From Caldimicrobium thiodismutans (GTDB lineage Bacteria; Desulfobacterota; Thermodesulfobacteria; Thermodesulfobacteriales; Thermodesulfobacteriaceae), in NCBI RefSeq assembly GCF_001548275.1, contig NZ_AP014945.1, forward strand, positions 450,001-482,000: a stretch of DNA of 32,000 nucleotides, in the 5' to 3' direction. The translations under genes were made by a program, and so were the position numbers. A model generated the notes under the pieces. The model was not told the DNA's origin, made no database searches, and was given only the letters and a program-made list of their open reading frames with translations. This document shows, in pieces, positions 1,621 through 31,579 of the stretch (the first letter of the stretch is position 1; each line of letters begins with the position of its first letter).

Positions 1621-1660
1621 GCAAAAAATGAATTAAAACAAATTTTAATAGGAGGGGAAC

Positions 1661-2890
1661 ATGAGCGAAAGACCAGAAAGACCAGATCCAATTTATACTC
1701 AACCTTATGATCCAACCTTAGCTGAAAAACTTTATAATCCTCAGAAACCTATGGAAAATAGAATTACTGATATTGGTCCTCCACATTATTGGCAGTTTTT
1801 ACCGCCTGTCATTCAGAGAAATTACGGTAAATGGAAATCTCACGAAATTATTCAGCCAGGTGTTATAAAGTATAAGGCTGAGTCTGGAGAGGTAGTTTAT
1901 GCTGTCCGTTGTGGAACGCCAAGGCTTGAAACAACTGATTATGTAAGGGAGATTTGTGAAATTGCTGATAAATACTGTGATGGATATGTCCGCTGGACAA
2001 CTCGTAATAATGTAGAATTTCATGTAACTGATGAGGAAAAATTGAGAGCTCTTCTTGAAGATTTAAAGAGTAGAAAGCATCCTGGTGGATCTTACAAGTA
2101 TCCCGTTGGTGGAACCGGAGCCTCTGTTACTAACATTGTTCACACTCAGGGTTGGATTCATTGTCACACCCCTGCAATTGATGCTTCAGGTGTTGTTAAA
2201 GCAATTATGGATGAGATCTTTGATTACTTTGGATCACATAAACTACCTGCTCAGGTAAGAATGGCTCTGGCTTGCTGTTTAAATATGTGTGGTGCGGTGC
2301 ACTGCTCAGATATCGCTGTAGTTGGTATTCACAGGAAACCACCTCTTGTTGAAGATGAAAGATTGGAAAAAGTTTGTGAAATTCCTCTTGTTATTGCTTC
2401 CTGCCCCCTTGGTGCAATTAAACCTGCAACTGCTGAAGTGGGTGGTGAAAAAAAGAAGACAGTTAGAGTTAATGTTGACAGATGTATGTTCTGTGGCAAC
2501 TGCTATACCATGTGTCCAGCCATGCCCATTTCTGATGGTCAAGGTGACGGTATAGCTATTGTGGTAGGTGGAAAAGTTTCTAACAGAATTAGCCCACCCA
2601 AATTCTCAAAGGTTGTAATCCCCTATATCCCCAATGAACCACCCCGTTGGCCAACTACTGTAAAATGGATTAAAAAGATACTTGAAACCTATTCAAAACA
2701 TGCAAATAAATATGAAAGAGTTGGCGACTGGATTGAAAGAATAGGCTGGGAAAGATTCTTTGAGCTTACAGAAATTCCCTTTACCTGGCACCTTATTGAT
2801 GATTACAGGTTAGCATACGACACTTATAGAACCTCAGTTCACTTTAAGTTTACCAGCCATGTAGAAACAGTTACAGAAATTGAATACTAA
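1661..2890 (+). CDS. dsrB: Dissimilatory sulfite reductase beta subunit
   Basis: 409-aa ORF with an AGGAGGGG RBS 3 nt upstream. It carries the conserved [11 protein letters not shown] motif, the CHTP ... [13 protein letters not shown] motif and a ferredoxin domain ([12 protein letters not shown]). It has roughly 17-30 extra N-terminal residues compared with the Desulfovibrio DsrB as I recall it. Confidence 0.95.
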
Positions 2891-2908
2891 TAAAAAGGGG
2901 TGAGAGTT

Positions 2909-3163
2909 ATGGACAAAGAAGAATTGAAACAAAAGATTATGGAGGTCATGACCAAAAAAGCTTCTGGAGGTGGAAAAAGTAAAATCTATCTTAAAGATTT
3001 ACAAAGGGAAATACCAGGAGCTAATCCCAGAGATATCAAAAATGCTGCTAATGAACTTGTCAGGGAAGGTAAACTTGAGTATTTTTCCACTGGAAGCACT
3101 GTTATGTATGGTGTTCCAGGTGTGGGAATGGGATTAGAGGCAGGAACAGAAAAACCAGAGTAA
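2909..3163 (+). CDS. dsrD: DsrD, small winged-helix protein of reductive-type dsr operons
   Basis: Small ORF immediately after dsrB, with a Lys-rich YLKD motif. The ATG at 2909 is preferred because the tracked GTG at 2900 lies inside the GGGGTGA RBS. Confidence 0.85.
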   Translation: MDKEELKQKIMEVMTKKASGGGKSKIYLKDLQREIPGANPRDIKNAANELVREGKLEYFSTGSTVMYGVPGVGMGLEAGTEKPE

Positions 3164-3300: not shown

Positions 3301-3531
3301 TTATACTTTTTTAGCTTCGGTAGGGGCTGATTCAGATGTGGAGTCAGTTTTTTTGGGTTCCTCCAATTTTTGAACCTCTTCACTAACATCAGCTTCCTTT
3401 AAAGACTGTTTAAAGGATTTAATCCCTTTTCCAAGGCCAGCACCAACTTCTGGTAATCTTTTAGCTCCAAAGATTAGTAAAGCAAGAAAGAGGATAATAA
3501 AAAGCTCCTGTCCACCAAGGCCTAAAGGCAT
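3301..3531 (-). CDS. tatA: Twin-arginine translocase subunit TatA/E
   Basis: 76-aa protein. The N-terminus [36 protein letters not shown] is the canonical TatA TM plus amphipathic helix. Confidence 0.9.
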
Positions 3532-3532
3532 G

Positions 3533-4267
3533 CTAAGCCCTCCTAAATTTAGTTATTTTTATTAAAATTATACCTATCTCATAAAGAATTGTCAAGGGTA
3601 AGGCTAGTAAGATTTGATAAATGGGATCCGCTCCAGCGGTGAGGATACTGGCAAGAACAAAGGATAGAATAATCGCGTAGGGACGAAAGTTTTTTAATTG
3701 ATCAAGGCTTGCAATCCCAAGTTTATGGATGAAAAATATTATAGAGGGAGTTTGGAAGAAGAGTCCAAAAATAAGAAGTAATTTAAGTAAAAAATTAATG
3801 TATTCCTTAAGGTAGGGTTTAAAAATAAGAAATTGTGATCCAAAGGAATAAAAAAATTTTAGAATAAAGGGTAAGAAAAAATAAAAGGCGATTAAATCGC
3901 CAATGAGAAAGGAAAAGGAGCTCATAAAAAGGGCTCCTTTAAGCCATTTTTTCTCATGGGGATATAGTCCAGGGGCTATAAAAATCCAGAGTTGATAAAT
4001 GATATATGGACTTCCAATGATTAATCCAAGAATTACCGCAATTTTTACCTGGTTAGAAAATACCTCAGGTAATGTTTTAAAAAAGAGTTTCTTATCTGCT
4101 AAATAGGGGCGAAGAGGATTGATAAGAAACTCCAGAATATTATCTGAATAAAGATAAACCAAAATTGAGGCTATTATCCAACCAAGAAAGGCTTTAATAA
4201 GACAGGACCTAAGTTCAAGGAGGTGTTCAACAAAAGACTGTTTCTTTTCTAAAGCTGCTTCAGACAT
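3533..4267 (-). CDS. tatC: Twin-arginine translocase subunit TatC
   Basis: 244-aa polytopic membrane protein with a TatC-like N-terminus ([14 protein letters not shown]). It lies 1 nt upstream of tatA. Confidence 0.9.
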
Positions 4268-9643: not shown

Positions 9644-11266
9644 TTACCCTAAGATAGCTTTTAAGTCTTCTTCAGGGGTGCTTACGGGTTTCAGATTGTA
9701 ATTTTCAACGATGAAGTTAGCCACATTTTTGCTTAAAAAGGCTGGCATACTTGGTCCAAGGCGCATATTTTTGATACCGAGATAGAGAAGAGTGAGAAAT
9801 ATAGCCACTGCCTTTTGCTCATACCAGGAAATAATTAAAGAAAGGGGAAGTTCATTAACACCCACATTGAAGACCTTGGAAAGGGCAAGGGCAATTTGAA
9901 TGGCAGAGTAGGCATCATTGCACTGACCTATGTCAAGAAGTCTCGGGATTCCATTTATGGTTCCGAGATCTTTATCAAAGAATCTAAACTTTCCGCAGGC
10001 AAGGGTTAAAACCACACAATCCTGAGGCACCTTTTCTACAAACTCAGTGTAATAATTCCTTACTGGTTTTGCCCCATCACAGCCTCCAACAAGGAAAAAG
10101 TGTCTGATTTTTCCTGACTTAACAAGCTCAACTACTTTATCTGCTACAGATAATACGGCATTTCTTGCAAAGCCAGTCATGATCTCCTTTCCGGGAATAT
10201 CTTCCTTAAATCCCTCCATGGATAGGGCCATCTCAATTACAGGAGTAAAGTCTTCATTGGGGATATGCTTTACTCCAGGGTAACCCACAGGACCAAGGGT
10301 AAAAACTCTGTCCTTATAGGAGTCCTTAGGGGGCATAAGACAATTTGTGGTCATAACAATTGGGCCAGGGAAGGCTTCAAATTCCTTCTGTTGATTTTGC
10401 CATGCGGTTCCGTAATGTCCATAAAGATGGGGAAATTTCTTCAGTTCAGGATAGCCATGAGCTGGAAGCATCTCCCCATGGGTATAAATATAAATACCCT
10501 TTCCCTCAGTCTGTTTGAGTAGCTCGTAAAGGTCTTTTAAGTCATGTCCTGAGACAAGAATGGCCTTACCAGCCTTAGCACCAAGAGGCACTCTGGTAGG
10601 AACAGGATTTCCGTAAGAAGAAGTGTTAGCCTTATCAAGGGCCTCCATAGTTAAGAGATTTAATCTGCCTGTTTCAAGGGCTCTTTCAACCCAGGTTCTT
10701 AAATCTGAGCTCTTATCTTTAAAAATGTTTACCAAAAGTTCCTTAAAGCCTTTGTAGACCTCTTCATTCCTCACACCGAGCCTCTCGGCATGATAGGCGT
10801 AAGCAGCAATGCCTTTAAGGGCATAAAGTATTGTAAGTTTAAGGCTTGCAATGTCTTCTCCTTCTTCTTTCATAACGGTAGGTTCAATTTCCCTTTCTTC
10901 AGCCTGTTTAATGAGTTCTTCCATGGATTTAGCAGGTTTAAAGTGAGCCCAGGGGGTATCTACCTCAACCTTGGCCTCGTGCTTTAAGGTCTCCCTTAAT
11001 TCCACAGCCTTTTCAATGTAAGCCTTAATCCTTTCAGGATCAAAGTTCACATTGGTAAGAGTGGAAAACATACCTTCCATGAGGAAGAAGTCAACTTCAG
11101 GCTTTTTAACTCCTCTCTTTTCTGCTTCTAAGGCTACTTCCGAAAGTCCTGCAAGTGTGTAAATCAAGAGATCCTGAAGCACATCGGTTTCATGGGTTTT
11201 CCCGCAAACCCCCCTCACCGTGCAGGCAAAACCTTTGGCAGTCTGTTCACACTGATTACAAAACAT
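9644..11266 (-). CDS. hcp: Hybrid cluster protein (hydroxylamine/NO reductase), class I
   Basis: The N-terminus MFCNQCEQTAKGFACTVRGVCGK has C-x2-C-x8-C-x5-C spacing, and the length is about 540 aa. The ATG at 11266 is preferred because the tracked GTG at 11275 lies inside the AGGAGGTG RBS. Confidence 0.93.
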   Translation of the reverse strand: MFCNQCEQTAKGFACTVRGVCGKTHETDVLQDLLIYTLAGLSEVALEAEKRGVKKPEVDFFLMEGMFSTLTNVNFDPERIKAYIEKAVELRETLKHEAKVEVDTPWAHFKPAKSMEELIKQAEEREIEPTVMKEEGEDIASLKLTILYALKGIAAYAYHAERLGVRNEEVYKGFKELLVNIFKDKSSDLRTWVERALETGRLNLLTMEALDKANTSSYGNPVPTRVPLGAKAGKAILVSGHDLKDLYELLKQTEGKGIYIYTHGEMLPAHGYPELKKFPHLYGHYGTAWQNQQKEFEAFPGPIVMTTNCLMPPKDSYKDRVFTLGPVGYPGVKHIPNEDFTPVIEMALSMEGFKEDIPGKEIMTGFARNAVLSVADKVVELVKSGKIRHFFLVGGCDGAKPVRNYYTEFVEKVPQDCVVLTLACGKFRFFDKDLGTINGIPRLLDIGQCNDAYSAIQIALALSKVFNVGVNELPLSLIISWYEQKAVAIFLTLLYLGIKNMRLGPSMPAFLSKNVANFIVENYNLKPVSTPEEDLKAILG

Positions 11267-11333
11267 AACAGGCACCTCCTTTTTTATTTTTTGAATTCTG
11301 AATAAAATTTAAGACCACCTTTTAAAAGTTTCC

Positions 11334-11347
11334 TTGATCTATATCAA
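11334..11347. promoter_or_regulatory. FNR/CRP-family binding site (TTGAT-N4-ATCAA) upstream of hcp
   Basis: TTGATCTATATCAA is a perfect FNR-type palindrome. On the minus strand a -10-like TAAATT starts 22 nt downstream of the site. Confidence 0.6.
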
Positions 11348-11454: not shown

Positions 11455-11783
11455 TTAAATTGGAAAAGGTGAAGTAGGTGCCCAGCCATACCAGTGCATA
11501 TAATCGGGATTCATGTGAAAGGCTCCCTGAAAAGTCCTCATCCTGTATTCAAGGAACATTACATAGAGATCTTGTTCTATAGAGCTTTTGGCTTTATAAA
11601 ACTTCAATAGATCTGGTGCAAAGACCCAGTTTTTGGGCCCACTATTCCTGGCGTTACCTTTTGATGGCACTCGATACACTGTGATTTAGGATCTGCATAA
11701 AGGGACGAAACCAGAAGTAATGAAAGAATAAAACTTGCCACACCTATCCACTGATCTTTACATCCCGATCCTAACCATAGCAT
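11455..11783 (-). pseudogene. Secreted monohaem c-type cytochrome-like gene split over two frames (-1 shift)
   Basis: ORF 11792-11604 encodes a signal peptide plus CIECH. ORF 11679-11455 continues in the -1 frame. The two overlap by 76 nt, and the overlap contains an A5 run and the heptamer C-CCA-AAA. The ATG at 11783 has an AGGAGGTG RBS. Confidence 0.5.
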
Positions 11784-11846
11784 ACCCTTCACCTCCTTTT
11801 AAATTTTTTTTTGACATTATTTTAAAAAGATTATATTTAAAAGTCC

Positions 11847-11860
11847 TTGATCTAAATCAA
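11847..11860. promoter_or_regulatory. FNR/CRP-family binding site upstream of the cytochrome c gene
   Basis: TTGATCTAAATCAA with the same TCC 5' flank as the hcp site. On the minus strand TAAAAT starts 22 nt downstream of the site. Confidence 0.55.
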
Positions 11861-13872: not shown

Positions 13873-14932
13873 ATATTTAAATAAAAAGGGCTATCTTGCC
13901 TATTTAGTTGGTGGTTGTGTCCGGGATCTAATACTTGGTTATGAACCAAAGGATTTTGATATTGTAACAGATGCCCGTCCAGAGGAACTTCTTAGACTTT
14001 TCCCAAGAGCGCGTCTTATTGGTAGGCGTTTCCCTATTGTGCATGTCTACTTTAATAAAGGGGATTTTGTTGAAATAACCACTTTTAGAGGCCCAGAGGA
14101 TCAAGATCATACAAAGGCTGACAATTATGGAACCCCTGAAGAGGATGCTCAGAGAAGGGATTTAACCATTAATGCCCTTTTTTATGATCCCTTTACAGGA
14201 GAAATTCTTGATTATGTGGGTGGTCTTGAGGATTTAAAAAGGGGAATCATACGAGTAATCGGTATCCCTGAACTTCGTTATAGGCGGGATCCTATTAGAA
14301 TGCTGAGAGTAATAAGACATGCTGCAAGAACAGGCTTTGAGATTGACAGGGAGACCTGGGAAGCCCTTTTAAAATCTAAAGAACTGATTAAGATCGTATC
14401 AAGAGAAAGATTGAGAGATGAAATCTTAAAAGATCTTTCTGGATTCTGGCTAAAAAGATGGTTTAAAATCTTGAAAGAAAGTGCACTTCTTTATGAGATT
14501 TATCCATTTTATAAAAACCTTGAGAATAAGTTAGATTTTTCAGAAAGTTTTTTATTGGATATCCTTAAAATAATTGAGGGATCGGAATTGAATCTTGAAC
14601 AAAGGATCGTGCTTTTTGTTTATCCCTTTTTACCTTTTATTCAAAGGACTTATAAACCTGATTTATATCAAAACATGCCTACTTTTGAGAGAAAGGAACT
14701 TTTAAAACTCTTCTGGGCCCTCTTTTTCACTTTTCGTTATAGCCGAGGCTTATTTGAAAAAACTATGGATATGTTTAGAGACCTTTACAAGATGCTTTAT
14801 TTGAAATTAAAGGGAAGAGAGATTCCGAAAAGATTTAAAAGAAAAATTTATTATTCCGAAATAGTTCCTCTTCTTGATATTTTATCTAATTTAATCAAAA
14901 ATAAAGGAAGGAGGAAAAAAGATGAGTCTTGA
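13832..14932 (+). CDS. Class II nucleotidyltransferase, poly(A) polymerase (PcnB)-like; start codon uncertain
   Basis: The frame is open from 13763. Hand translation upstream of the tracked GTG at 14039 gives [69 protein letters not shown], which covers the catalytic GG..RD and DxD motifs and the PAP-type RLxGRRF signature. There is no ATG, GTG or TTG in that stretch. The CTG at 13832 has AAGAGG 8 nt upstream. Confidence 0.7.
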
Positions 14933-15647
14933 AAGGACTTTAAGCTACCAGTTCATACAAAAAACCAAATTATCTTTTACAACTCTTGGAGTGAGGGAGA
15001 TTTATCTTGAATCTGCGCCTCCTTATAAAAGCTATCCTCAGGTAGAAAAAATTGAACTCAAGCTTAGGGATATCCCAGAGAAAGGGAATTTTTTTCAAAT
15101 TCTTTCTAAAAGAAGGAGTAATAGAAAATACAGGAAAAGGCCTTTATCTCTTGAGGAGATTTCTCTTTTATGCTTTGCAGCCCAGGGAATTACTGCTCAG
15201 GCTGGTTTTTATCTCTTAAGAACAGCCCCTTCTGCAGGAGCTCTCTATCCTGTTGAGACTTATCTCGCAGTAAATTACTCGGAGGAGATACCATCAGGTA
15301 TATATCACCTTGAGGTAAGAAGTTTTGTCCTTGAAAAATTGATGGAAGGGAATTTCGGCAAAATTCTAAGAGATCTTGCCCTTGGTCAGGCCTTTTTTGA
15401 AGCAGCAAGTTGTGTCTTCATCTGGAGCGCAGTGCTTAGAAGAACCCTTTCCAAATATGGAGAAAGAGGACTTAGGTATATTTTTATGGATGTAGCCCAT
15501 ATCTGCCAGAATGTTCTTTTGGCAGCAGAGGCTCTGCACCTTAAAGCCTGCCCAGTTGGAGCCTTCCTTGATGAGGAAATCAATGAGTTTTTAGGGCTTG
15601 ATGGAAAAGAGGAAACAGTAATTTATATGGCAACTATTGGGAAATAA
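14922..15647 (+). CDS. SagB-type dehydrogenase / nitroreductase-family protein
   Basis: 241-aa protein. The motifs RRSNRKY, PSAGALYP and a C-terminal nitroreductase fold are typical of the SagB/ThcOx subfamily. A GGAGG RBS is present, and the gene overlaps the upstream gene by 11 nt. Confidence 0.7.
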   Translation: MSLERTLSYQFIQKTKLSFTTLGVREIYLESAPPYKSYPQVEKIELKLRDIPEKGNFFQILSKRRSNRKYRKRPLSLEEISLLCFAAQGITAQAGFYLLRTAPSAGALYPVETYLAVNYSEEIPSGIYHLEVRSFVLEKLMEGNFGKILRDLALGQAFFEAASCVFIWSAVLRRTLSKYGERGLRYIFMDVAHICQNVLLAAEALHLKACPVGAFLDEEINEFLGLDGKEETVIYMATIGK

Positions 15648-15648
15648 C

Positions 15649-16005
<357 letters not shown>

Positions 16006-16010
16006 TCATT

Positions 16011-17255
16011 TTAAATGTGAAGATTATAAGCTCGTTCTCCGTGCTGGGTTTCATCAAGTCCAACAAGTTCATCTTCTGGATTAACCCTAAGGTTTTTAAA
16101 TATAATCTTAAGAAATAGAAAAATCAAAGCAGTAACCATAGCTGAATAAAAAATTATTATACCAATACCTAAGAGTTGAAGCCAGAGTTGGGCGGCACTT
16201 CCGTAAAAGAGACCAGCAATCTGATTTATAGAGGGATCTGCAAAGAATCCTACGCTTAGGCTTCCTATAATTCCACCTACTCCATGGATTCCAAAGGCAT
16301 CTAAGGTGTCGTCATAATTAAGCTTTCCTTTTACAAAGGCTATGGAGATAAAACAGACAAGGCCTGCAATTACACCAATAATTAAAGCTCCATAAACATT
16401 TACATATCCAGCGGCTGGAGTAATGGTTGCAAGGCCTGCAATAGTCCCAGAGGCTAAACCAAGGATAGTAGGTTTTTTAAAGATAAGCCATTCAGCAATA
16501 CACCAGATTAGTGAAGCGGAGGCAGCTGCTGTATTAGTATTAACAAAGGCTATAGTAGCAAGCTCTTTGGCTGAAAGGGCAGAACCTGCATTAAAACCAA
16601 ACCATCCAAACCACAGAAGACCGGTTCCGAGGACTACAAGGGTTAAATTATGTGGAATAAGGGTGGTATCATTGCGTGCTTTTAGTATCAAGGCTCCTAT
16701 TAAAGCAGAAATTCCAGCTGTAGTATGCACTACTATACCCCCTGCAAAGTCAACAACTCCCATTTTTGCAAGAAAGCCACCTCCCCAAATCCAATGAGCA
16801 ACCGGAAGGTATACCATGGTAAACCAGAGAAGGCTGAAGGTTATCCAAATGGAAAATTTTATTCTTTCAATATAGGCACCACTAACCAGAGCAACTGTAA
16901 TAGCTGCAAAGGTTAATTGAAACATAGCAAAAATAAATTCAGGGACAGTTTTTGCTCCTTCATTTGAAGAAGTTAAAGTAATAGACTTAAAAAATATCTT
17001 TTCAAAGCCTCCAATTAATCCGAAAATATCATGTCCAAAGGCAAGGCTATAGCCATAAACTACCCAAAAAACACTTATCAAGCAGTATGTTACAAAAGAC
17101 ATGGCCATAGTATTTAGAGCATCTTTCCTTTTGCTAAGACCACCATAAAAAAGAGCAAGTCCTGGTAGGGTCATCATCATGACCAAAGCAGTAGAAATAA
17201 GTAGCCATGCAGTATCTCCAGTGTCAAACTTTAATAATTCTTGAGGATTGGGCAT
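16011..17255 (-). CDS. amtB: Ammonium transporter
   Basis: Amt family motifs are present (DTAWLLISTALVMMMTLPGLALFYGG, FAGGIVVHTTAG, DDTLDAFGIHGVGG). The ATG at 17255 has a GGAGG RBS 8 nt upstream. The tracked start at 17288 looks like an upstream extension. Confidence 0.93.
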   Translation of the reverse strand: MPNPQELLKFDTGDTAWLLISTALVMMMTLPGLALFYGGLSKRKDALNTMAMSFVTYCLISVFWVVYGYSLAFGHDIFGLIGGFEKIFFKSITLTSSNEGAKTVPEFIFAMFQLTFAAITVALVSGAYIERIKFSIWITFSLLWFTMVYLPVAHWIWGGGFLAKMGVVDFAGGIVVHTTAGISALIGALILKARNDTTLIPHNLTLVVLGTGLLWFGWFGFNAGSALSAKELATIAFVNTNTAAASASLIWCIAEWLIFKKPTILGLASGTIAGLATITPAAGYVNVYGALIIGVIAGLVCFISIAFVKGKLNYDDTLDAFGIHGVGGIIGSLSVGFFADPSINQIAGLFYGSAAQLWLQLLGIGIIIFYSAMVTALIFLFLKIIFKNLRVNPEDELVGLDETQHGERAYNLHI

Positions 17256-17291
17256 TCCCTTAACCTCCTTTTGAGAATTTGTAAACATTAA

Positions 17292-24758: not shown

Positions 24759-24947
24759 TTAATCCTGCCAGGATATAGCAGAAACTGGGCAGGAATTAAT
24801 AGCCTCTTCGCAGTTACACTCTTTACAACCCTCCTGGTTCTTTACATAGGCCTTTTCATCTGACCCAAGTTCAAAGACATTGGGGCAGAGTTCCACACAG
24901 GTCCCACAGCCAATACAAAGTTCATCATCAACCACAAGGGTAGCCAT
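24759..24947 (-). CDS. Small single-cluster ferredoxin
   Basis: CIGCGTCVELCP plus distal Cys residues including CP. The ATG at 24947 has GGAGG 8 nt upstream. The tracked ATG at 24953 is only 2 nt from the RBS. Confidence 0.85.
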   Translation of the reverse strand: MATLVVDDELCIGCGTCVELCPNVFELGSDEKAYVKNQEGCKECNCEEAINSCPVSAISWQD

Positions 24948-25011
24948 AAGCATAACCTCCTTTTTAGTATTTTTTTATAATATAAATTAAGCTTTCACTT
25001 TGTAAAATCCT

Positions 25012-25025
25012 TTGATCTAAATCAA
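25012..25025. promoter_or_regulatory. FNR/CRP-family binding site in the ferredoxin / molybdoenzyme divergent region
   Basis: TTGATCTAAATCAA has a 14-mer core identical to 11847-11860. On the minus strand TAATTT starts 22 nt downstream of the site. The site is 65 nt from the tracked ferredoxin ATG (24953) and 166 nt before the molybdoenzyme ATG. Confidence 0.55.
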
Positions 25026-25089: not shown

Positions 25090-25133
25090 AAATTAACAAG
25101 AAATTAACTGAAATTTAACTTCTTCTTAACAGA
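25090..25133 (+). repeat. Four direct aaaTTAAC repeats phased at exactly 11 bp, a candidate response-regulator binding array
   Basis: TTAAC starts at 25093, 25104, 25115 and 25126. The units read aaaTTAACaag, aaaTTAACtga, aatTTAACttc and ttcTTAACaga. The array lies about 60 nt upstream of the ATG at 25191. Confidence 0.5.
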
Positions 25134-25190: not shown

Positions 25191-27875
25191 ATGCGAGTTA
25201 GCAGGAGGACCTTTTTAAAAACCGCCCTTTTAGGAAGTGCTTTTTTAGCTGGTTCAAAGTATTTTAAAAAGGGGTTTACTGAGATTTCAAGGGATGAGGG
25301 TATTAAGTATGTAAGATCTACCTGTTCCCCTAATTGCACCGGAGCCTGTGGATTTAAGGCCATGGTTTATAGGGGAAGGCTTGTAGCCCTCATTCAGGCA
25401 GCTGATTATCCTGAGGAGGAATACAACCCCAGAGGCTGTCTTAGAGGGCAATCCATGATTAATCTTATTTATGGACCTGATCGGTTGAAACAACCCCTAA
25501 TCAGAGTTGGTAAAAGAGGAGAGGGAAGATTTAAGGCTGTAAGCTGGGATGAAGCCCTGGATTATACAGCTACAAAACTTGCAGAGATCATGAAAAAATA
25601 TGGTCCTGAGTCTGTGGCTTCTTTTATTCAAGTCCCTGGCACAGGATATGTTCAGAAAGGAGCCTTGATGAGGCTTTCTTCTATGTTGGGATGGAGTGTG
25701 ATTCATGCCTATACCATGAATGGAGATCTTCCCATGTTTTGGCCTATAACTTTTGGAGTTCAAACAGAGGAACTTGAAAGTCTTGAATGGGCAAATTCAA
25801 AATACACCCTTATTTGCGGTTCGAATATTCTTTGGACGCGTGTCCCGGATGCTAAATTTCTTCATCTTAGTAGGGAAAGGGGAGGAAAAATAGTAGTTGT
25901 TGATCCCAATTATTCTCCCACAGCAGCTGCAGCTGATGAATGGATTCAAATTAATCCTTCAACAGATGCTGCCTTTGCTTTAGGTTTAGCCCATGTAATT
26001 CTTTCTGAAGGTCTTTATGATGAGAATTTTGTCAAAACTTATACGGATTTACCTCTTCTTGTGAGACTTGACAATCAGAAAAAATTGAAAGCTGAGGAAG
26101 TGGCTGGACTTTCGGCTCAGGCTAAGGCTATGAAGAGCCGTCTTCCAGAATACCGAGAGTGTTATGTGGTTTATGATGTAAAGGCCAAAAGATTTGTAAT
26201 CCCCAATCCTGAAAATCTTAAAAGGGATTTTGAACCCTTTCTTGAGGGTGAGATTGAGGTCACCCTTGTGGATGGAAAAAAGGTGAAAGTTAAACCCGTT
26301 TTTCAGCTCTTAAAAGAGGAAATTCTTGCTAATTATAGTCCTGAAAAGGTGGCTCAGATAATTTCTCCATCAGCAGATAGGGTGAAAGAATATGAGGAGA
26401 TAGTAAAACGTATTGGAAGGGAAATAGCTACTATAAAGCCCCTTCACATTGTTTACGGAGCAAGTAATTATCAGTGGTATCATGGAGATCTTAAAGGTAG
26501 GGCCTATTCCCTTTTAGTAGCTCTTACAGGAAATCTTGGAAAGTCAGGGGCTGGAATTTCTACCTATGCAGGCCAATACAGGATTCGCTGGCCTCTCGGG
26601 GCCTGGTGGCAATTTAAAGGTAAGCCCTTAAAATGGGTCAGTTTTCTCCTCTGGCTGAATAAAGAATATAGAGAAAGTGAAGAATTTAAAAAGTATAATA
26701 AAGAGACTCCATATCCTCCCAATGATGTTAAAGCCCTTGTCTTTGGTTGGGGGAATCCCTTTGATCAGCATAACCTTGCCAATCGTTTAAGAGAGAAAGC
26801 CTTAAATGGGGAGCTTGAGTTAATTGTCAATTTTGATTTTCAGATGGCAACCTCTGTTGCCTGGTCAGATGTAATATTACCTGGAGTTGCCTGGTATGAA
26901 AAATATGACCTTACAGCCACAGTTCTTCATCCATATGTTCAGCTTCAACAGCCTGCTATTGAACCCCTCTTTCAGTGTATGCCTGAGATCTGGATTTGTA
27001 AAGAGCTTGCCAAAAGAGTGGCTGAAAAGTTAGGAGATGATGAGCTAAAAAAGGAGGTAAGAGAATTCTATGTAAATCCTGAACTTTTTGATAAAGAGGA
27101 ATCTGCAAGAAAGAAAGGAGAATGGAATCTAAGGCTTGCCAGAGAGATAGCTAATCAAGCCAGTCTTGATGCTGCAGACCTTATGTTAAAAACTGGGGGC
27201 CCCCTTGTTGAGGGAATTACCCTTGAAGCCCTTAAAAAGGGTCCTGTCCGTCTTAATTTGCCAGCCCCTGGAAAAAGACAGCTTGTCTTTTATGAACAGA
27301 TCCAGGAATACAAACCCTTTCCACCAGTGTCTTATCCAGCACCACTTCCCAAAACTGCAAGATTTGTCAAAAGTGGAAGAATTGAGTTTTACAAGGAGGA
27401 GGATGTCTTTATTGATCTTAAAGAAACTTTACCAGTGCACAAAGACCCTATCAAAGATACTGAACACAAAAACATGAAAGAAAAGTATTCTTTAATCTAT
27501 ATTACCCGTAATAGACTTTACACTGTTCATTCCACTCACAGCAATAACATTACTATGCTTGAGCTTCAGGACTTTAGACCAAGAATCTGGATCCATCCAG
27601 ATACAGCAAAAAAGAGAGGGATTAAAGAAGGGGATCTTGTTGAGATCTATAACGAGAGAGGAAAGGTTTATGCTTATGCTGTCCTTGATCCAGGAATTCA
27701 TCCTCAGATTGTAACTTTTGAAGAGGGATGGTGGAGTAGATACTTAAGGGGAACTTCCTATAATACTCTAATCTACCCCTGGATTAAACCTACTCATATT
27801 ATTTATTTTGTCCCAGGGATCTGGGAGGCAAGTACCTGCTGGAATGAAGCAGCATGTGAAATTAAAAAGGCCTAA
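25191..27875 (+). CDS. Tat-exported molybdopterin (Mo/W-bisPGD) oxidoreductase alpha subunit, NarG-like type II DMSO reductase family
   Basis: 894-aa protein with an SRRTFLK twin-arginine motif (aa 4-10). The FS0 motif is C45-x3-C49-x3-C53-x29-C83, embedded in VRSTCSPNCTGAC...DYP...PRGCLRG, which parallels E. coli NarG VRSTHGVNCTGSC...DYP...PRGCPRG. MNGDLP (Asp179, nt 25725-25727) aligns with the NarG Mo-ligand Asp in WYCDLP. AWYEKYD matches NarG TWYEKDD. Confidence 0.85.
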   Translation: MRVSRRTFLKTALLGSAFLAGSKYFKKGFTEISRDEGIKYVRSTCSPNCTGACGFKAMVYRGRLVALIQAADYPEEEYNPRGCLRGQSMINLIYGPDRLKQPLIRVGKRGEGRFKAVSWDEALDYTATKLAEIMKKYGPESVASFIQVPGTGYVQKGALMRLSSMLGWSVIHAYTMNGDLPMFWPITFGVQTEELESLEWANSKYTLICGSNILWTRVPDAKFLHLSRERGGKIVVVDPNYSPTAAAADEWIQINPSTDAAFALGLAHVILSEGLYDENFVKTYTDLPLLVRLDNQKKLKAEEVAGLSAQAKAMKSRLPEYRECYVVYDVKAKRFVIPNPENLKRDFEPFLEGEIEVTLVDGKKVKVKPVFQLLKEEILANYSPEKVAQIISPSADRVKEYEEIVKRIGREIATIKPLHIVYGASNYQWYHGDLKGRAYSLLVALTGNLGKSGAGISTYAGQYRIRWPLGAWWQFKGKPLKWVSFLLWLNKEYRESEEFKKYNKETPYPPNDVKALVFGWGNPFDQHNLANRLREKALNGELELIVNFDFQMATSVAWSDVILPGVAWYEKYDLTATVLHPYVQLQQPAIEPLFQCMPEIWICKELAKRVAEKLGDDELKKEVREFYVNPELFDKEESARKKGEWNLRLAREIANQASLDAADLMLKTGGPLVEGITLEALKKGPVRLNLPAPGKRQLVFYEQIQEYKPFPPVSYPAPLPKTARFVKSGRIEFYKEEDVFIDLKETLPVHKDPIKDTEHKNMKEKYSLIYITRNRLYTVHSTHSNNITMLELQDFRPRIWIHPDTAKKRGIKEGDLVEIYNERGKVYAYAVLDPGIHPQIVTFEEGWWSRYLRGTSYNTLIYPWIKPTHIIYFVPGIWEASTCWNEAACEIKKA

Positions 27876-27888
27876 GGAGGAGGGAAAG

Positions 27889-28668
27889 ATGCCAAGATGG
27901 GGAATGGCTATAGACCTTGGAAGATGTATAGGTTGCAGAAGTTGTGCCGTGATTTGTAAAATTCATAATGCTCTTCCACCAGGAACCTGGTGGCAAAGAG
28001 TTGAGACCATAGGGTCCAAGGTTCATCATACTCCTGTGGGAAGATATCCCGATTTTTCTGAGGTTTATCTTCCTGTGCCCTGTCAACACTGTGATAATGC
28101 TCCCTGTGTTAAAGTATGTCCTGTTGGAGCAACCTGGCAAAGGGAAGATGGGCTTGTTCTCATTGATTTTGAAAGGTGCATTGGTTGTAGATATTGTATG
28201 ACTGCCTGTCCCTATGGGGTCAGACAGTTTAACTGGCAGAATCCTGACAAAAACTTTAAGGAAGCTTTTAAAAAACTTGGTTATCCTCAAGACTGGTTTG
28301 CTGATTCTTCTTACAGACCTGGTTATCCCCTTGAACACAGAACTAAGGATGGAAGGCTTGTTTTTACTCCTAAGAGACCAAGGGGTGTGGTGGAAAAATG
28401 CACCTTTTGTGTCCAATATGTGGATCAGGGATTACCACCTGCCTGTGTCAGGGGATGTCCAGGAAATGCAAGGATCTTTGGAGATCTAAATGATCCCCAT
28501 AGTTTAATCTCTCAGGTTATTAAAAGAAGAGATGTGATTCGTATGAGAGAAGATTTAAATACCTCTCCCAAAGTTTTTTATCTCCTTCCGGAATATAAGA
28601 GTTACAGAGGAAGGATTATCTACGAGAGGGTTCTCAAAGCCTTTGAAGGAAAAGTGGTTAATCTGTAA
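27889..28668 (+). CDS. Four-cluster [4Fe-4S] electron-transfer beta subunit (PsrB/NrfC/DmsB-like)
   Basis: Four complete Cys groups are present: CIGCRSCAVIC, CQHCDNAPCVKVCP, CIGCRYCMTACP and CTFC...CVRGCP. The ATG at 27889 has a GGAGGAGGG RBS. The tracked 27808 start overlaps the alpha subunit gene. Confidence 0.9.
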   Translation: MPRWGMAIDLGRCIGCRSCAVICKIHNALPPGTWWQRVETIGSKVHHTPVGRYPDFSEVYLPVPCQHCDNAPCVKVCPVGATWQREDGLVLIDFERCIGCRYCMTACPYGVRQFNWQNPDKNFKEAFKKLGYPQDWFADSSYRPGYPLEHRTKDGRLVFTPKRPRGVVEKCTFCVQYVDQGLPPACVRGCPGNARIFGDLNDPHSLISQVIKRRDVIRMREDLNTSPKVFYLLPEYKSYRGRIIYERVLKAFEGKVVNL

Positions 28669-28690
28669 AAAATAAATGGAGGGGACAACC

Positions 28691-29959
28691 ATGCAGGGAA
28701 GATTTTCTAAAGTTTATAAAATCCTTGGTCTAATAATAGTTATTGGACTTTTAGCCTTTATCTATCAGTTATCCAGGGGATTAATTGTCACCCATATGCG
28801 AAACTCCTTCTCCTGGGGGCTTTACATTGCTACCTGGGCCTTTTTTGTTGGAACTGCTGCAGGAGGATTGGTAGTTTCCTCTTCCATTTACCTTTTCAAG
28901 GTTGAGACCTTAAAACCAGTAGCAAGACTAGCTACCATTACAGCCTTTGTCTTTGCTATTGCAGCTATGACCATACTTTTGCCAGATGTGGGAAGACCGG
29001 ACAGACTTTACAATGTTTTTATTCATCCCAATTTTAAAAGCCTTCTCCCTTGGGATTTTCTGGTTCTTTCTTCTTATTCACTGGTTTCTATAATTTATGC
29101 CTATGTTTTAATGAAGCCCGAGATTTATAAATTTGGAGTGAACTTTCCTTTTCTTGGCTTAAAGGGTAAAAAAGATATAAGTGATGAGGAGTATACGAGG
29201 TTAAAAGAGCAATCTTTTGCACAGGCTAAAAAGCTTGCTCCTATTGCGCTTCCCCTTGCTATTTTAATTCATACTGTCACAGCCTGGGTCCTTGCCACAC
29301 AGGCAGCAAGACCTTGGTGGTATGGAGGCCTTCTTGCTCCTACCTTTATTGCTACAGCTATCTCTACAGGCCCTGCTATTGTTATTCTCTTTTCCCTCTG
29401 GATTCTTGGTGTCAATGAAAAACTTCTTTCTGCCTATAGAGTCCTTGCCAAAATCTCAGCACTATCAAGCATAATCTTACTCTTTATGTATTACAATGAA
29501 TTTTTCATTCGCTTTTGGTGGCACCATGGAGAGGATTATGAAGCCTTAAAACTTCTTTTTACCAAGTATTTACATCTCCATGTGATTGAGGTCTTCTTCA
29601 TTCTTCTTTCAGCCTATCTATTTTTCAGATACTCAGATGTTCCAAAAAAACTTATTCAGGGAGGTATTGCTTTAATAATTGGAGTTTTTGCACATAGATT
29701 TTTACTTCTTCCCTCGGCATACAATATAATTCCTTTTAAAGTGCCTGTAATTGAAAGGTATGGTTCCGAGGAATGGAGCTATCCCATTGCCCACGGGGAA
29801 GTGACAGGGGATCTTTTAAATCCGGGAAGGATCTTTGTAGATTTCTGGAATTATTATCCCTCTGTTATTGAGATTTTAATAACAGCTGGTGTTATGGCAG
29901 CAGTTGTGTTTGTAATTTTAAAACTTTCAGAAATTTTACCTGTTGAAGAAAAAGCATGA
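28691..29959 (+). CDS. NrfD/PsrC-type integral membrane (quinone-interacting) subunit
   Basis: About 420-aa polytopic protein. The N-terminal pattern SWGLYIATWAFFVGTAAGG is typical of NrfD-family anchors. The ATG at 28691 has GGAGGGG 6-8 nt upstream. An alternative ATG lies at 28676. Confidence 0.85.
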   Translation: MQGRFSKVYKILGLIIVIGLLAFIYQLSRGLIVTHMRNSFSWGLYIATWAFFVGTAAGGLVVSSSIYLFKVETLKPVARLATITAFVFAIAAMTILLPDVGRPDRLYNVFIHPNFKSLLPWDFLVLSSYSLVSIIYAYVLMKPEIYKFGVNFPFLGLKGKKDISDEEYTRLKEQSFAQAKKLAPIALPLAILIHTVTAWVLATQAARPWWYGGLLAPTFIATAISTGPAIVILFSLWILGVNEKLLSAYRVLAKISALSSIILLFMYYNEFFIRFWWHHGEDYEALKLLFTKYLHLHVIEVFFILLSAYLFFRYSDVPKKLIQGGIALIIGVFAHRFLLLPSAYNIIPFKVPVIERYGSEEWSYPIAHGEVTGDLLNPGRIFVDFWNYYPSVIEILITAGVMAAVVFVILKLSEILPVEEKA

Positions 29960-30447
29960 AAAACCTTTGGTTCAAATATTATTCTTTACTTTTAAGTTAT
30001 CCTTCAAAAGACTGGCTTTATGAACTTGAAAATATTGAGAGGTATTTAGAAAAAGAAAAAAATGATTTTTTTAAATTCAGCCAGTTCTTTAAAAATTTTT
30101 CTCTACAGGAGTTGCAGGAAGAATACACCAATCTTTTTATCTCCTCATTCCCCACCCTTCCATGCCCTCCCTATGAGGCCTATTATAGGGAGGGCCTTCT
30201 TCTTGGTGAAACCTCTCAAGAGGTTTTAGATTATTATGAAAAAACTGGATTTCAATTTTTCAAAGAAGGCGAGGCCCCTGATCATATTGCTGTGGAACTG
30301 GAATTCTGCGCCCTTACCGAGGACCTTACCTTTATTAAAAGGATTAAAAATTGGTTTAACGATCTAAAAGAATGTGTAGAAAAAAGTTCTCAAATTTATA
30401 GTAAGATTGTAAAATTTATAAGTGAAGAATTAAAAAAGTGGGAATAA
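29956..30447 (+). CDS. TorD/DmsD/NarJ-family redox enzyme maturation chaperone
   Basis: 163-aa protein with the family pattern YTNLF...PPYEAYY...G...VLDYYEKTGF...APDHIAVELEF. Its start overlaps the upstream stop as ATGA. Confidence 0.8.
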   Translation: MKNLWFKYYSLLLSYPSKDWLYELENIERYLEKEKNDFFKFSQFFKNFSLQELQEEYTNLFISSFPTLPCPPYEAYYREGLLLGETSQEVLDYYEKTGFQFFKEGEAPDHIAVELEFCALTEDLTFIKRIKNWFNDLKECVEKSSQIYSKIVKFISEELKKWE

Positions 30448-30449
30448 AA

Positions 30450-31040
30450 ATGCCAAAAAAAATTTCCATTTCAGAGGAAGATATTTTATCTGCTATGAAA
30501 TCTCTGGGAACATACATTGATATTACTCCCGAAGATTTCAAAAAATTATATGAAATTGTCTGGCAGAAAGTTAAGGAAAAATTTCTGTATGAAACTAAAG
30601 CCAAAGATATTATGAATCCCGAAGTTTTATATGTTTTTCCTGAAGATAAACTTGAAGAGGTTATAATCCAGATGGCAGAGAGAGGAGTTTCTGGGGTGCC
30701 TGTAGTAGAAAAGGAGAAGGTGATGGGTATTCTTTCGGAGAAGGATATCCTAAAGGGTATAGGGATTAGTAAATCCATAGGACTTTTATCAGCATTGGCT
30801 GAATGTCTTAAAAGGAGTGAATGTTTATTAGAAGAAGTTTTAACTAAAAAAGTAAAAGATTTCATGACCTCGCCTGCCATTACTGTTAATCTTAACGATC
30901 CTGTAGTCAAAGTAATTGAATTATTCAAGAAAAAAAGGATAAACCGTGTGCCAGTGATTGATAATGAGGGAAAACTTAAAGGTATTATTGCCCGAGGAGA
31001 TATATTTCTTTTGCCCTTTTTTGAAGAGGAACTTTCATGA
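30450..31040 (+). CDS. CBS-pair domain protein
   Basis: Two CBS motifs are present (KDIMNPEVLYV...GVSGVPVV and VKDFMTSPAITV...RINRVPVID). The ATG at 30450 lies 2 nt after the chaperone stop. An alternative GTG lies at 30438. Confidence 0.85.
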   Translation: MPKKISISEEDILSAMKSLGTYIDITPEDFKKLYEIVWQKVKEKFLYETKAKDIMNPEVLYVFPEDKLEEVIIQMAERGVSGVPVVEKEKVMGILSEKDILKGIGISKSIGLLSALAECLKRSECLLEEVLTKKVKDFMTSPAITVNLNDPVVKVIELFKKKRINRVPVIDNEGKLKGIIARGDIFLLPFFEEELS

Positions 31041-31579
31041 CTCTTGGTGAGTATTTTTCTAAAATGAAAGGAGGAGCCAAGTCTCCTCCCAGGGTAAGTC
31101 TTTTAGAGGTCTTCTGGTCCTTTGTGGGAAGTTTTCTTGGGATTGGTCTTGTAGCCTTTATTCACAGTTTTTATGTTGAGCCCCGGGGACTTTTTTTGGT
31201 AATAGCCTCATATGGGGCTTCAGCGGTTTTAATTTATGGAGCACCCCATAGTCCTCTTGCTCAGCCAAGAAATCTTTTAGGAGGACATTTATTATCAGGA
31301 TTTGTGGGCGCATTGATTGCCAAACTTGTCCCGTTTTATTTCCTTGCCTGTGCCTTGAGTGTTTCCCTTGCCATTGTGGTTATGCATCTAACCAAAACCC
31401 TTCACCCTCCAGGAGGAGCAACAGCCCTTTTTGCAGTGATTGGAGGAGAAAAGGTGCAAAGACTCGGCTTAATTTATGCCTTATTCCCTGTTCTAACAGG
31501 AGCTATTCTTATGCTAATAATTGCCCTTCTTGTGAACAATCTTTCTAAGGTAAGAAGATATCCTGAATACTGGTGGTGA
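31037..31579 (+). CDS. HPP-family membrane protein
   Basis: 180-aa protein with four or more TM segments and the eponymous motif KTLHPPGGATAL. Its start overlaps the CBS gene stop as ATGA. Confidence 0.85.
   Translation: MTLGEYFSKMKGGAKSPPRVSLLEVFWSFVGSFLGIGLVAFIHSFYVEPRGLFLVIASYGASAVLIYGAPHSPLAQPRNLLGGHLLSGFVGALIAKLVPFYFLACALSVSLAIVVMHLTKTLHPPGGATALFAVIGGEKVQRLGLIYALFPVLTGAILMLIIALLVNNLSKVRRYPEYWW

Follow-up and report, generated by a model that had tools for sequence, protein, structure and literature searches.

The complex encoded by AF0176-AF0173 of Archaeoglobus fulgidus is a molybdoenzyme whose label has changed over time. Its genes AF0174-AF0176 were called a nitrate reductase, then a molybdoenzyme without a known function, and then a candidate pNar. 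From Liebensteiner et al. (2013) onward, AF0174-AF0176 has been taken, on genomic and proteomic evidence, to be the enzyme that converts perchlorate to chlorite in A. fulgidus; the complex, termed 'Pcr-like' or pNar-like, is also linked to Dridge et al. (2006). Relatives listed in a review come from Ferroglobus, Desulfosporosinus, Desulfitobacterium, Carboxydothermus, and Moorella. Here we describe a member of this family in Caldimicrobium thiodismutans. A six-gene operon at positions 25191-31579 of a 32,000-nucleotide (nt) stretch of contig NZ_AP014945.1 (hereafter, the window) joins the reductase genes to a CBS-HPP gene pair. The enzyme itself is not new in kind, since the family has been known from the A. 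fulgidus genome onward and has been reviewed several times. The one unusual part is a lineage-specific putative transporter cassette attached to a member of a known reductase family. An earlier account of the window, made from its letters alone (the sequence-only reading), had correctly cited Liebensteiner et al. (2013) for (per)chlorate reduction by a periplasmic NarG-like enzyme of Archaeoglobus.

The operon and its AF0176-type reductase

An open reading frame (ORF) scan and a Pfam search of the window give six head-to-tail ORFs on the + strand, with the same coordinates and family assignments as in the sequence-only reading:

25191-27875, + strand: alpha (catalytic) subunit, 894 amino acids (aa); PF04879, PF00384, and PF01568 (Molybdop_Fe4S4, Molybdopterin, Molydop_binding)
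27889-28668, + strand: beta subunit, 259 aa from the ATG at 27889; Fer4_11
28676-29959, + strand: NrfD/PsrC-type integral membrane subunit, 427 aa; NrfD (PF03916), 3.8e-56
29956-30447, + strand: NarJ/TorD-family chaperone, 163 aa; Nitrate_red_del, 3.8e-22
30450-31040, + strand: soluble CBS-pair protein (THC_0478), 196 aa; two CBS domains
31037-31579, + strand: HPP-family membrane protein, 180 aa; TM_HPP (PF04982), 1.3e-58

The junctions, in gene order, measure +13, +7 (22 if the membrane subunit starts at Met6), -4 (ATGA), +2, and -4 (ATGA) nt, and a script thus reproduced the gap and overlap sizes given earlier. The operon is bounded because an AT-rich gap of 237 nt precedes alpha and a convergent EamA-like gene begins 2 nt past HPP. 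On this layout, the predicted six-gene operon is confirmed as a real one. It had also been claimed that the genes are translationally coupled; the tight spacing stands, but coupling itself is only what such spacing would suggest.

On the A. fulgidus chromosome, the genes after AF0176 encode an Fe-S protein of 251 aa and then members of the NrfD and Nitrate_red_del families. Identities between the two organisms are 71% for alpha and AF0176 (full length), 70% for beta and AF0175, 58% for NrfD and AF0174, and 37% for the chaperone and AF0173. By these comparisons, the first four genes are shown to be the C. thiodismutans ortholog of the AF0176-AF0173 complex. A tblastn survey of the family gave 82 loci (labels of the form L### denote survey loci), and alpha, beta, and NrfD are collinear in essentially every one that is long enough. 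Identity to the window alpha is 93% in Caldimicrobium metagenome-assembled genomes (MAGs) and 79% in Thermosulfurimonas. It is ~70% in Nitrospirota/Thermodesulfovibrionales, Archaeoglobus, Geoglobus, and Ferroglobus; 52-57% in Moorella, Carboxydothermus, Desulfosporosinus, Desulfitobacterium, Deltaproteobacteria, and a Methanoperedenaceae MAG; and 47-50% in rumen Lachnospiraceae. The reference enzymes lie lower, at 37% for an enzyme linked to the chlorite dismutase gene (cld), 35% for PcrA, 33% for pNarG, 28-29% for NarG, 27% for ClrA, and 26% for PhsA.

A neighbor-joining tree on Kimura distances (29 sequences, 100 bootstraps) gathers the AF0176-like sequences into a single clade (100/100) apart from NarG, pNarG, PcrA, and ClrA. 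Within it, the window alpha forms a subclade (100/100) with AF0176 and the Geoglobus and Nitrospirota sequences. References were taken from annotated plasmids (Haloferax mediterranei pNarG, Alicycliphilus ClrA, Escherichia coli and Thermus NarG, a DmsA-like protein, PhsA, and the Alisedimentitalea enzyme adjoining chlorite dismutase), and the PcrA sequence was rebuilt from the PDB alignment. One tip, 'Eggerthellaceae', is a wrong ORF from L079 (18% identity) and is disregarded. This is a reduced form of the phylogeny that the sequence-only reading had in view: its references are few and include no SerA, DdhA, EbdA, or full NxrA, and it is adequate for orthology with AF0176 but not for deep branching within the Asp-ligated group.

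Two earlier claims do not survive these results. By implication, alpha had been set outside any clade of characterized substrate, but it nests with AF0176 at 100% bootstrap among enzymes with the same subunit set. The combination of subunits had been taken as a departure from type II enzymes, but a large known family has these subunits as standard, as the 71% identity to AF0176 and the survey attest. Because the window complex is an ortholog of AF0176-AF0173, the claimed architectural novelty is not real.

The sequence motifs singled out in alpha were all verified. The twin-arginine translocation (Tat) motif S-R-R-T-F-L-K occupies residues 4-10 (script check), the FS0 [4Fe-4S] site reads C45-x3-C49-x3-C53-x29-C83, Asp179 lies inside MNGDLP (residues 176-181), and AWYEKYD starts at residue 567. 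In the alignment, Asp179 falls in the same column as the Asp of 'CDLP' in E. coli NarG and of 'GDHP' in PcrA, which is the molybdenum (Mo)-ligand position proposed for it. This Asp is invariant in the AF0176 family, is common to NarG, pNarG, PcrA, and ClrA, and is not found in DmsA or PhsA. A 'block by block' match to NarG had also been claimed. It holds for the Asp and AWYEK blocks, but the FS0 block differs because its first ligand is Cys, as throughout the AF0176 family, rather than the His of NarG, pNarG, PcrA, and ClrA. The Tat signal, the Cys-type FS0, and the Asp of the N-G-D-L-P columns are kept in nearly all aligned family members. Asp replaces the second FS0 Cys in two members, one a Methanoperedenaceae MAG and the other a Deltaproteobacteria MAG. 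Among NCBIfam models, the best match of alpha is TIGR03479 (type II alpha) at 504 bits, below its cutoff of 985, and TIGR01580 (narG) gives 290 bits, below its cutoff of 1084.

The beta subunit, described earlier as short, PsrB/NrfC-like, and bearing four complete Cys4 groups, does have 16 Cys in four complete groups, the third of which is CIGCRYC, and has no signal peptide of its own. All 16 Cys recur in an alignment with AF0175, PhsB, and DmsB, and on this pattern the subunit holds 4 x [4Fe-4S]. In NarH, ClrB, Haloferax NarH, and the cld-linked beta, the third group instead shows C-x2-W, the signature of a 3Fe-4S cluster, and the Cys number 15 (17 in E. coli NarH). TIGR03478 scores 113 bits on beta, below its cutoff of 481. 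The membrane partner, correctly recognized before as an NrfD/PsrC-type polytopic protein, has ~10 hydrophobic segments and no heme motifs, and it presumably carries the quinol site. Its closest solved relatives are ActC-type subunits of alternative complex III (ACIII). No EB_dh or NarI gene was found in a Pfam search of the six genes. Judged by these motifs and by the tree, the AF0176 complex is shown to be a distinct and widespread branch of the Asp-ligated (NarG/Pcr/Clr) molybdoenzymes, with a 4 x [4Fe-4S] PsrB-like beta subunit and a heme-free NrfD.

In Firmicutes and rumen loci of the family (e.g., L026, L028, L031, L040, L054, L061, L073, and L076), the operon has clade-specific regulators at its flanks. 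A sigma-54 activator with PAS domains lies 5′ of the operon in 11 loci. A GAF histidine kinase and a LuxR-type response regulator flank it in eight mainly rumen or gut loci. A large poly-ferredoxin stands in place of the NarJ-like gene in 15 loci.

The CBS-HPP cassette

The attachment of CBS-HPP is the only part of the operon that orthology to Archaeoglobus leaves unexplained. The HPP protein matches PF04982 at 197.5 bits (gathering threshold, 27.2), has 4-5 hydrophobic segments, and carries a H123-P124-P125 motif that is invariant across 14 homologs. HPP proteins of cyanobacteria and plastids are reported to be nitrite transporters (Maeda et al. 2014), as the sequence-only reading had correctly stated. 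By analogy, the HPP protein of the window is a putative nitrite channel or transporter.

An HPP-centered scan of metagenome contigs found CBS directly 5′ of HPP in 51 of the 60 loci with room to show it. A ~200-aa CBS gene also occupies this position in all four homolog contexts sampled on long contigs (60-64% identity). These four have no molybdoenzyme nearby, and their sources include Dissulfurispira, Desulfobacca, and another Caldimicrobium MAG. CBS-HPP is an autonomous two-gene cassette, and the adjacency in 51/60 loci makes the CBS protein a partner of HPP rather than a regulator of the reductase. Among the 120 best homologs of CBS and the 120 best of HPP, no fused CBS-HPP protein was found. 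For this reason, a Rosetta-stone argument for the pair is limited to source names ('CBS-domain-containing membrane protein') and COG3448.

Five sequences of the Caldimicrobium lineage (the window, L003, L004, L094, and L095) retain all six genes as an operon. Within these, CBS has diverged to 71% identity and HPP to 77% while alpha stays above 91%, and the narJ-CBS junction of L094 and L095 is an ATGA overlap. The operon occurs without CBS-HPP in Thermosulfurimonas, in the Archaeoglobi, and in most Nitrospirota and Firmicutes loci. The attachment is a stable addition specific to the Caldimicrobium lineage. Thus, the earlier proposal that the CBS and HPP genes are tied to the enzyme as conserved neighbors holds in part: the genome survey finds them conserved beside alpha only in Caldimicrobium, and elsewhere CBS belongs with HPP.

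Perhaps CBS-HPP is a mere co-transcribed neighbor in the Caldimicrobium lineage, uncoupled from an enzyme that works as it does in cassette-less relatives. The cassette is found in many unrelated contexts (GlnE, CLC channels, CRISPR Cmr genes, LpxB) and is placed elsewhere in a different Caldimicrobium MAG. In addition, the operons of A. fulgidus and of Thermosulfurimonas, the closest relative outside Caldimicrobium (79%), lack it. However, the overlapping or 2-nt junctions persist in spite of the divergence of CBS, and the cassette has been placed independently beside AF0176-type, NarG, and Nxr-type operons in varied orientations and phyla. By a rough estimate, which is not a computed control, a gene present in one or two copies would fall within a 16-kb stretch chosen at random in ≤1% of cases, and the recurrence is far above this. 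We regard this explanation as unlikely.

HPP or CBS-HPP stands beside AF0176-type operons in at least five arrangements. Besides the window clade, these are the Dissulfurispiraceae loci L006 and L141, with HPP or CBS-HPP ~3.5 kb from the operon on the opposite strand and accompanied by the hybrid cluster protein gene hcp; L100, with HPP or CBS-HPP divergent from the operon; L156, in which an intact CBS-HPP-hcp run, with hcp immediately after HPP, diverges from AF0176-type alpha fragments; and L028 and L051 (Paradesulfitobacterium and Desulfitobacterium), in which HPP alone directly follows NrfD. To these can be added L023, a Bacillota MAG with an AF0176-type operon, HPP or CBS-HPP nearby, and hcp. 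In L156 (5549-10212), the alpha gene appears to be broken up: one fragment of 97 aa is the N-terminus and has a Tat motif, another of 91 aa stands apart, and possibly this is a decaying reductase beside a retained cassette.

The same genes adjoin other enzymes of nitrogen-oxide metabolism. In L104 (ORJL010057921.1, 3726-10546), narG-narH and two genes of 184 and 226 aa in the narJ and narI positions are followed, 19 nt after the fourth gene, by HPP as a fifth gene without CBS; this narG scores 1523 bits on TIGR01580, above the cutoff. CBS-HPP lies 3 kb from a NarG that is 55% identical to E. coli NarG in L112. A Kuenenia-type nxrABC-like operon in L096 (FWWM01030869.1, 3-5150) runs from an NxrA-like C-terminus through an NxrB-like beta (404 bits to Kuenenia NxrB, PDB 7b04), an EB_dh gamma, and two small genes, and it ends in CBS-HPP. 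Finally, hcp adjoins CBS-HPP in four loci. This neighborhood of narGHJI, nxr-type, and AF0176-type operons and hcp argues that the cassette handles nitrite.

Other genes also recur near the cassette. A ~215-aa MOSC/YiiM-like gene directly 3′ of HPP in six loci (L122, L141, L142, L150, L162, and L175) has a faint similarity to 6-hydroxyaminopurine reductase, with a sub-cutoff score of 137 bits. Near CBS-HPP in L099, L101, L110, L142, and L160, a COX1-family protein (457 aa) occurs together with a cytochrome c subunit; the pair has no NCBIfam match in these five loci, and we do not call it a NO reductase. A protoglobin-PsiE fusion (four loci, partly overlapping those with COX1) and a Fer4_5 protein recur as well. 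The ~680-aa molybdoenzymes that adjoin HPP in L114 and L158 received no family assignment from an NCBIfam search.

Proposed mechanism, substrate, and control

We consider it modestly probable that the operon encodes an AF0176-type quinol-linked periplasmic oxyanion reductase for which nitrate is the likelier substrate, and that CBS-HPP serves it as a nitrite channel with a gate. The enzymatic part of this view, a Tat-exported, Asp-ligated (type II-like) enzyme with a NarJ-like chaperone that acts as a quinol-linked periplasmic oxyanion reductase, was already present in the sequence-only reading. It is supported by our analysis and is the most plausible assignment. The NarJ-like chaperone would hold apo-alpha until the Mo-bisPGD (bis-pyranopterin guanine dinucleotide) cofactor is inserted, and alpha and beta would then be exported together via TatAC on the twin-arginine signal of alpha. 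Menaquinol would be oxidized by NrfD, and electrons would pass through the four beta clusters to FS0 and on to Mo, where the oxyanion would be reduced on the periplasmic side. HPP might act as a small nitrite (or nitrate/nitrite) channel through which the product would cross the membrane, to be reduced or detoxified in the cytoplasm. As for the CBS pair, it might be the cytoplasmic ligand-sensing gate of HPP and not a regulator of the enzyme.

We agree with the earlier statement that the substrate is not readable from the sequence. Context is the useful part here: for the widespread AF0176 family, both nitrate and (per)chlorate are candidate physiological substrates. Nitrate would be the likelier natural substrate in Caldimicrobium because CBS-HPP stands at the end of the operon and elsewhere lies beside narGHJI, nxr-type, and AF0176-type operons and hcp. 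Furthermore, hcp (Prismane) adjoins AF0176-type operons in 7 of 80 loci, including that of Desulfosporosinus nitroreducens. Desulfosporosinus metallidurans and Desulfosporosinus sp. I2 appear in a published table as reducers of nitrate that have no match to E. coli-type NarG or NapA (only a 30-31% 'NarG' match), and both carry the AF0176-type operon (loci L030 and L037). Nitrate as the natural substrate by association, set against (per)chlorate or no coupling, is nonetheless close to an even call.

Several observations weigh against nitrate or against the proposed role of the cassette. The correlation between nitrate use and the operon is imperfect because D. hippei and D. fructosivorans carry the operon and are listed as nitrate-negative. 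Nor does the operon track nitrate use in the Archaeoglobi: A. neptunius has it and does not grow on nitrate or (per)chlorate, Geoglobus ahangari is described as an obligate Fe(III) reducer although its copy is annotated NarGHIJ, and F. placidus has a separate canonical NarGHI in addition to its AF0176-type operon. A literature search gave no report of nitrate or (per)chlorate use by C. thiodismutans. Most AF0176-type loci have neither HPP nor hcp nearby, no solved structure exists for the HPP family, and nitrite transport by HPP proteins is known only from cyanobacteria and plastids (Maeda et al. 2014). The FNR-type box between the ferredoxin gene and alpha (see below) is spaced for the divergent ferredoxin gene and may not control the operon.

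The active site adds to these points and brings in (per)chlorate as a rival. The best solved-structure match of alpha is PcrA (PDB 4ydd; 377 bits over the full length), whereas NarG gives 247 bits in pieces. The gate position W461 of PcrA is occupied by Tyr or Phe throughout the AF0176 family and by Glu in NarG and pNarG; a W461E variant of PcrA has been deposited as 5e7o. PcrA Y165 is conserved in the family, and the F164 position is Ala, Gly, or Pro (Ala in the window alpha). An AGQYR motif is common to the family and to a plasmid enzyme adjoining chlorite dismutase, which is also the nearest outgroup by identity (37%). With PcrA as the best structure, an aromatic residue at the W461 position, Y165, and AGQYR, the active site is at least as Pcr-like as Nar-like. 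Moreover, perchlorate reduction by AF0174-AF0176 is the sole experimental assignment in the family. The enzyme could therefore be a (per)chlorate reductase that makes chlorite in the periplasm, with removal of chlorite abiotically by the sulfide of the host (dsrAB are in the window) and with CBS-HPP as unrelated cargo or a channel for another small anion.

Against this rival, a Pfam scan of window ORFs of ≥100 aa gave no chlorite dismutase, and the recurrent neighbors of both the family and the cassette (Hcp, NarGHJI, Nxr) tie to nitrogen oxides. A. neptunius has the operon without growing on chlorate or perchlorate, and sulfidic hot springs contain little natural perchlorate. It is common for Nar- and Pcr-type enzymes to reduce substrates of both the nitrate and the chlorate class, and for this reason chlorate activity would leave nitrate possible as the physiological substrate. 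On balance, we judge a dedicated (per)chlorate reductase to be rather unlikely, somewhat less so than an uncoupled cassette.

Two further substrates appear highly improbable. Because C. thiodismutans grows by sulfur disproportionation and descriptions of the genus exclude dissimilatory sulfate reduction, the label 'sulfate reducer' given earlier to this host, which has dsrAB, is inaccurate. An enzyme for an inorganic sulfur compound (thiosulfate, tetrathionate, polysulfide, or sulfite) would suit this lifestyle. Beta and NrfD score best on the DsrO/TtrB/ArrB and DsrP models, the family is common among sulfur-metabolizing anaerobes, and molybdopterin enzymes are candidate markers of disproportionation. 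However, alpha belongs to the Asp-ligated Nar/Pcr/Clr lineage and not to the Cys-ligated Psr/Phs/Ttr lineage (PhsA, at 26%, is an outgroup), and rumen Lachnospiraceae, Moorella, and Methanoperedenaceae have members of the family as well. The proposed 'MOLY' sulfur-disproportionation cluster was rejected as a match since it has three genes, a different composition, and no NrfD. Selenate, arsenate, iodate, or some further oxyanion is conceivable in that the selenate reductase SerA is among the type II enzymes, but the ~165 loci have no neighbor from Se, As, or I metabolism, and we would be surprised by such a substrate. A nitrite oxidoreductase was also rejected, as nitrite oxidation cannot reduce menaquinone without an input of energy (established thermodynamics).

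Returning to nitrate reduction coupled to a nitrite channel, a wider proposal can be made tentatively, and we hold it to be less probable than the reading for Caldimicrobium. AF0176-type enzymes might be a distinct class of periplasmic, Asp-ligated, NrfD-anchored, heme-free respiratory nitrate reductases that covers anaerobes without NarG or NapA, and the split CBS-HPP might be a general ligand-gated nitrite channel shared by Nar, Nxr, and AF0176-type systems. If so, NarG/NapA-free nitrate reduction would be explained in some Desulfosporosinus and perhaps in Moorella, Carboxydothermus, and rumen Lachnospiraceae. The Caldimicrobium operon, with enzyme and channel hard-wired in one transcript, would be the clearest case. 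In any event, C. thiodismutans is in culture and fully sequenced and its operon carries a putative nitrite-channel cassette, and the neighborhoods described here provide the first broad genomic argument that places bacterial CBS-HPP pairs in nitrogen-oxide metabolism.

The region upstream of the operon and other parts of the window hold the following features:

24759-24953, - strand: gene for a small ferredoxin with a single cluster, 64 aa; it diverges from the operon, and the two have a promoter region in common (ORF list)
25012-25025, no strand: perfect FNR/CRP-type palindrome TTGATCTAAATCAA, between the divergent ferredoxin gene and alpha
25093-25130, + strand: four perfect TTAAC direct repeats with an exact 11-nt period, 61-98 nt 5′ of the alpha start
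11334-11347, no strand: FNR/CRP-type palindrome, 65 nt 5′ of hcp
11847-11860, no strand: FNR/CRP-type palindrome, 5′ of a small CxxCH ORF preceding hcp
9644-11275, - strand: hcp (Pfam scan of window ORFs)
3533-4267, - strand: tatC, general export machinery outside the operon
3301-3531, - strand: tatA, likewise general export machinery outside the operon

Exact matches to TTGAT-N4-ATCAA number three in the window versus 0.14 expected. Each of them lies 62-66 nt 5′ of the start of a - strand gene, namely the ferredoxin gene, hcp, or the small CxxCH ORF, and an identical 14-mer is shared by the ferredoxin/operon region and the hcp upstream region. Among Caldimicrobium relatives of the 25012-25025 region, the half-sites are invariant, the spacer is variable, and the divergent ferredoxin gene is conserved. 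As positive controls, boxes 5′ of narG, narK, and a dmsA-like gene of E. coli are recovered by the same search, and three Desulfobacterales loci have an FNR-type box ~97 nt 5′ of alpha. This pattern suggests one CRP/FNR-family regulon that joins hcp to the ferredoxin/reductase promoter region, and possibly hcp belongs to the same regulon as the operon. Measured from the center of the 25012-25025 box, the distance is 65.5 nt to the start codon of the ferredoxin gene and 172 nt to the ATG of alpha. Because the former spacing equals that at hcp, the box could be for ferredoxin and not for the operon; it may drive the ferredoxin gene, the operon, or both.

The TTAAC array is the sole match in the window even at 2 mismatches, and none of 100 shuffles gave any. 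Its outer repeats are invariant and its inner repeats partly conserved in L003, L094, and L095, which makes it a candidate operator/promoter element or regulator-binding array. A promoter scan of the AT-rich region gave 35 promoter-like matches versus 16 expected, with no convincing + strand site 5′ of alpha, and terminator-like matches were no more numerous than chance. A 13-bp G+C-rich hairpin inside the chaperone gene (30164-30195) lacks a proper T tract and is probably no terminator. Between hcp and mnmG, two short overlapping ORFs (62 and 74 aa; 11455-11792, - strand) have no Pfam match; the N-terminus of the first ORF is hydrophobic, and this ORF carries a heme-c motif, CIECH. Together they could represent a gene for a small cytochrome c, perhaps with a frameshift, that has an FNR-type box 5′ of it. 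The presence of tatCA in the window had been noted correctly before. Other window genes include dsrA, dsrB, and a dsrD-like 87-aa ORF (322-3163), a nitroreductase-family gene (14922-15647), and genes for PII and an ammonium transporter (15649-17288).

Comparison with described systems

The closest system is AF0176-AF0173 of A. fulgidus, which has the same four genes in the same order, a Tat signal, a Cys-type FS0, the Asp ligand, a beta subunit with 16 Cys, and NrfD. The two differ in that one host is archaeal and the other bacterial, and in that no CBS-HPP lies 3′ of the Archaeoglobus operon.

PcrAB of Azospira suillum (4ydd) resembles the window alpha in being periplasmic and in its Asp ligand, the aromatic residue at the W461 position, and Y165. 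In contrast, PcrA is only ~35% identical, has a His-type FS0, and has F164 where the window alpha has Ala. Pcr enzymes are not known to have an NrfD and use a soluble cytochrome route. The marks of a PcrABCD + cld locus are absent here: alpha has neither PcrA-level similarity nor a His-type FS0, and no cld is found among window ORFs of ≥100 aa. A cld neighborhood is seen in L087, on a conjugative plasmid of Alisedimentitalea scapharcae (NZ_CP123588.1; 5119-10648), where cld is found with a type II alpha, a 15-Cys beta, TorD, and a cytochrome c. That alpha is 34-37% identical to the window alpha and has an AGQYR(M/I)R motif, as in the AF0176 family.

NarGHI of E. coli and pNarGH of Haloferax mediterranei share the Asp ligand, FS0, the AWYEK block, and a NarJ-type chaperone with the window complex. 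They differ in their identity of 28-33% and in a NarH with a 3Fe-4S cluster. The pNar enzymes are Tat-exported, as is the window alpha, whereas NarGHI has a cytoplasmic active site. The anchors are also distinct, with a heme-b NarI, or for pNar a cytochrome b/Rieske plus an EB_dh-like subunit, in place of the NrfD found here. More broadly, the Asp ligand is shared with the type II enzymes (Nar, Ebd, Ser, Clr, Ddh, and Pcr), but their C-x2-W 3Fe-4S beta and heme-b gamma subunits are not. The electron-input module, a 4 x [4Fe-4S] beta with a heme-free NrfD, is instead that of PsrABC, PhsABC, TtrABC, and DsrOP-type systems, and the catalytic subunits of Psr, Phs, and Ttr are of a different, Cys-ligated lineage (26% identity to PhsA).

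Lastly, the HPP protein of the window shares PF04982, the HPP motif, and a small polytopic form with the HPP transporters of cyanobacteria and plastids (Maeda et al. 2014). It differs in being a separate 180-aa protein with a dedicated CBS gene 5′ of it, in its occurrence in a thermophilic anaerobe, and in its place within a respiratory-type operon rather than among assimilation genes.

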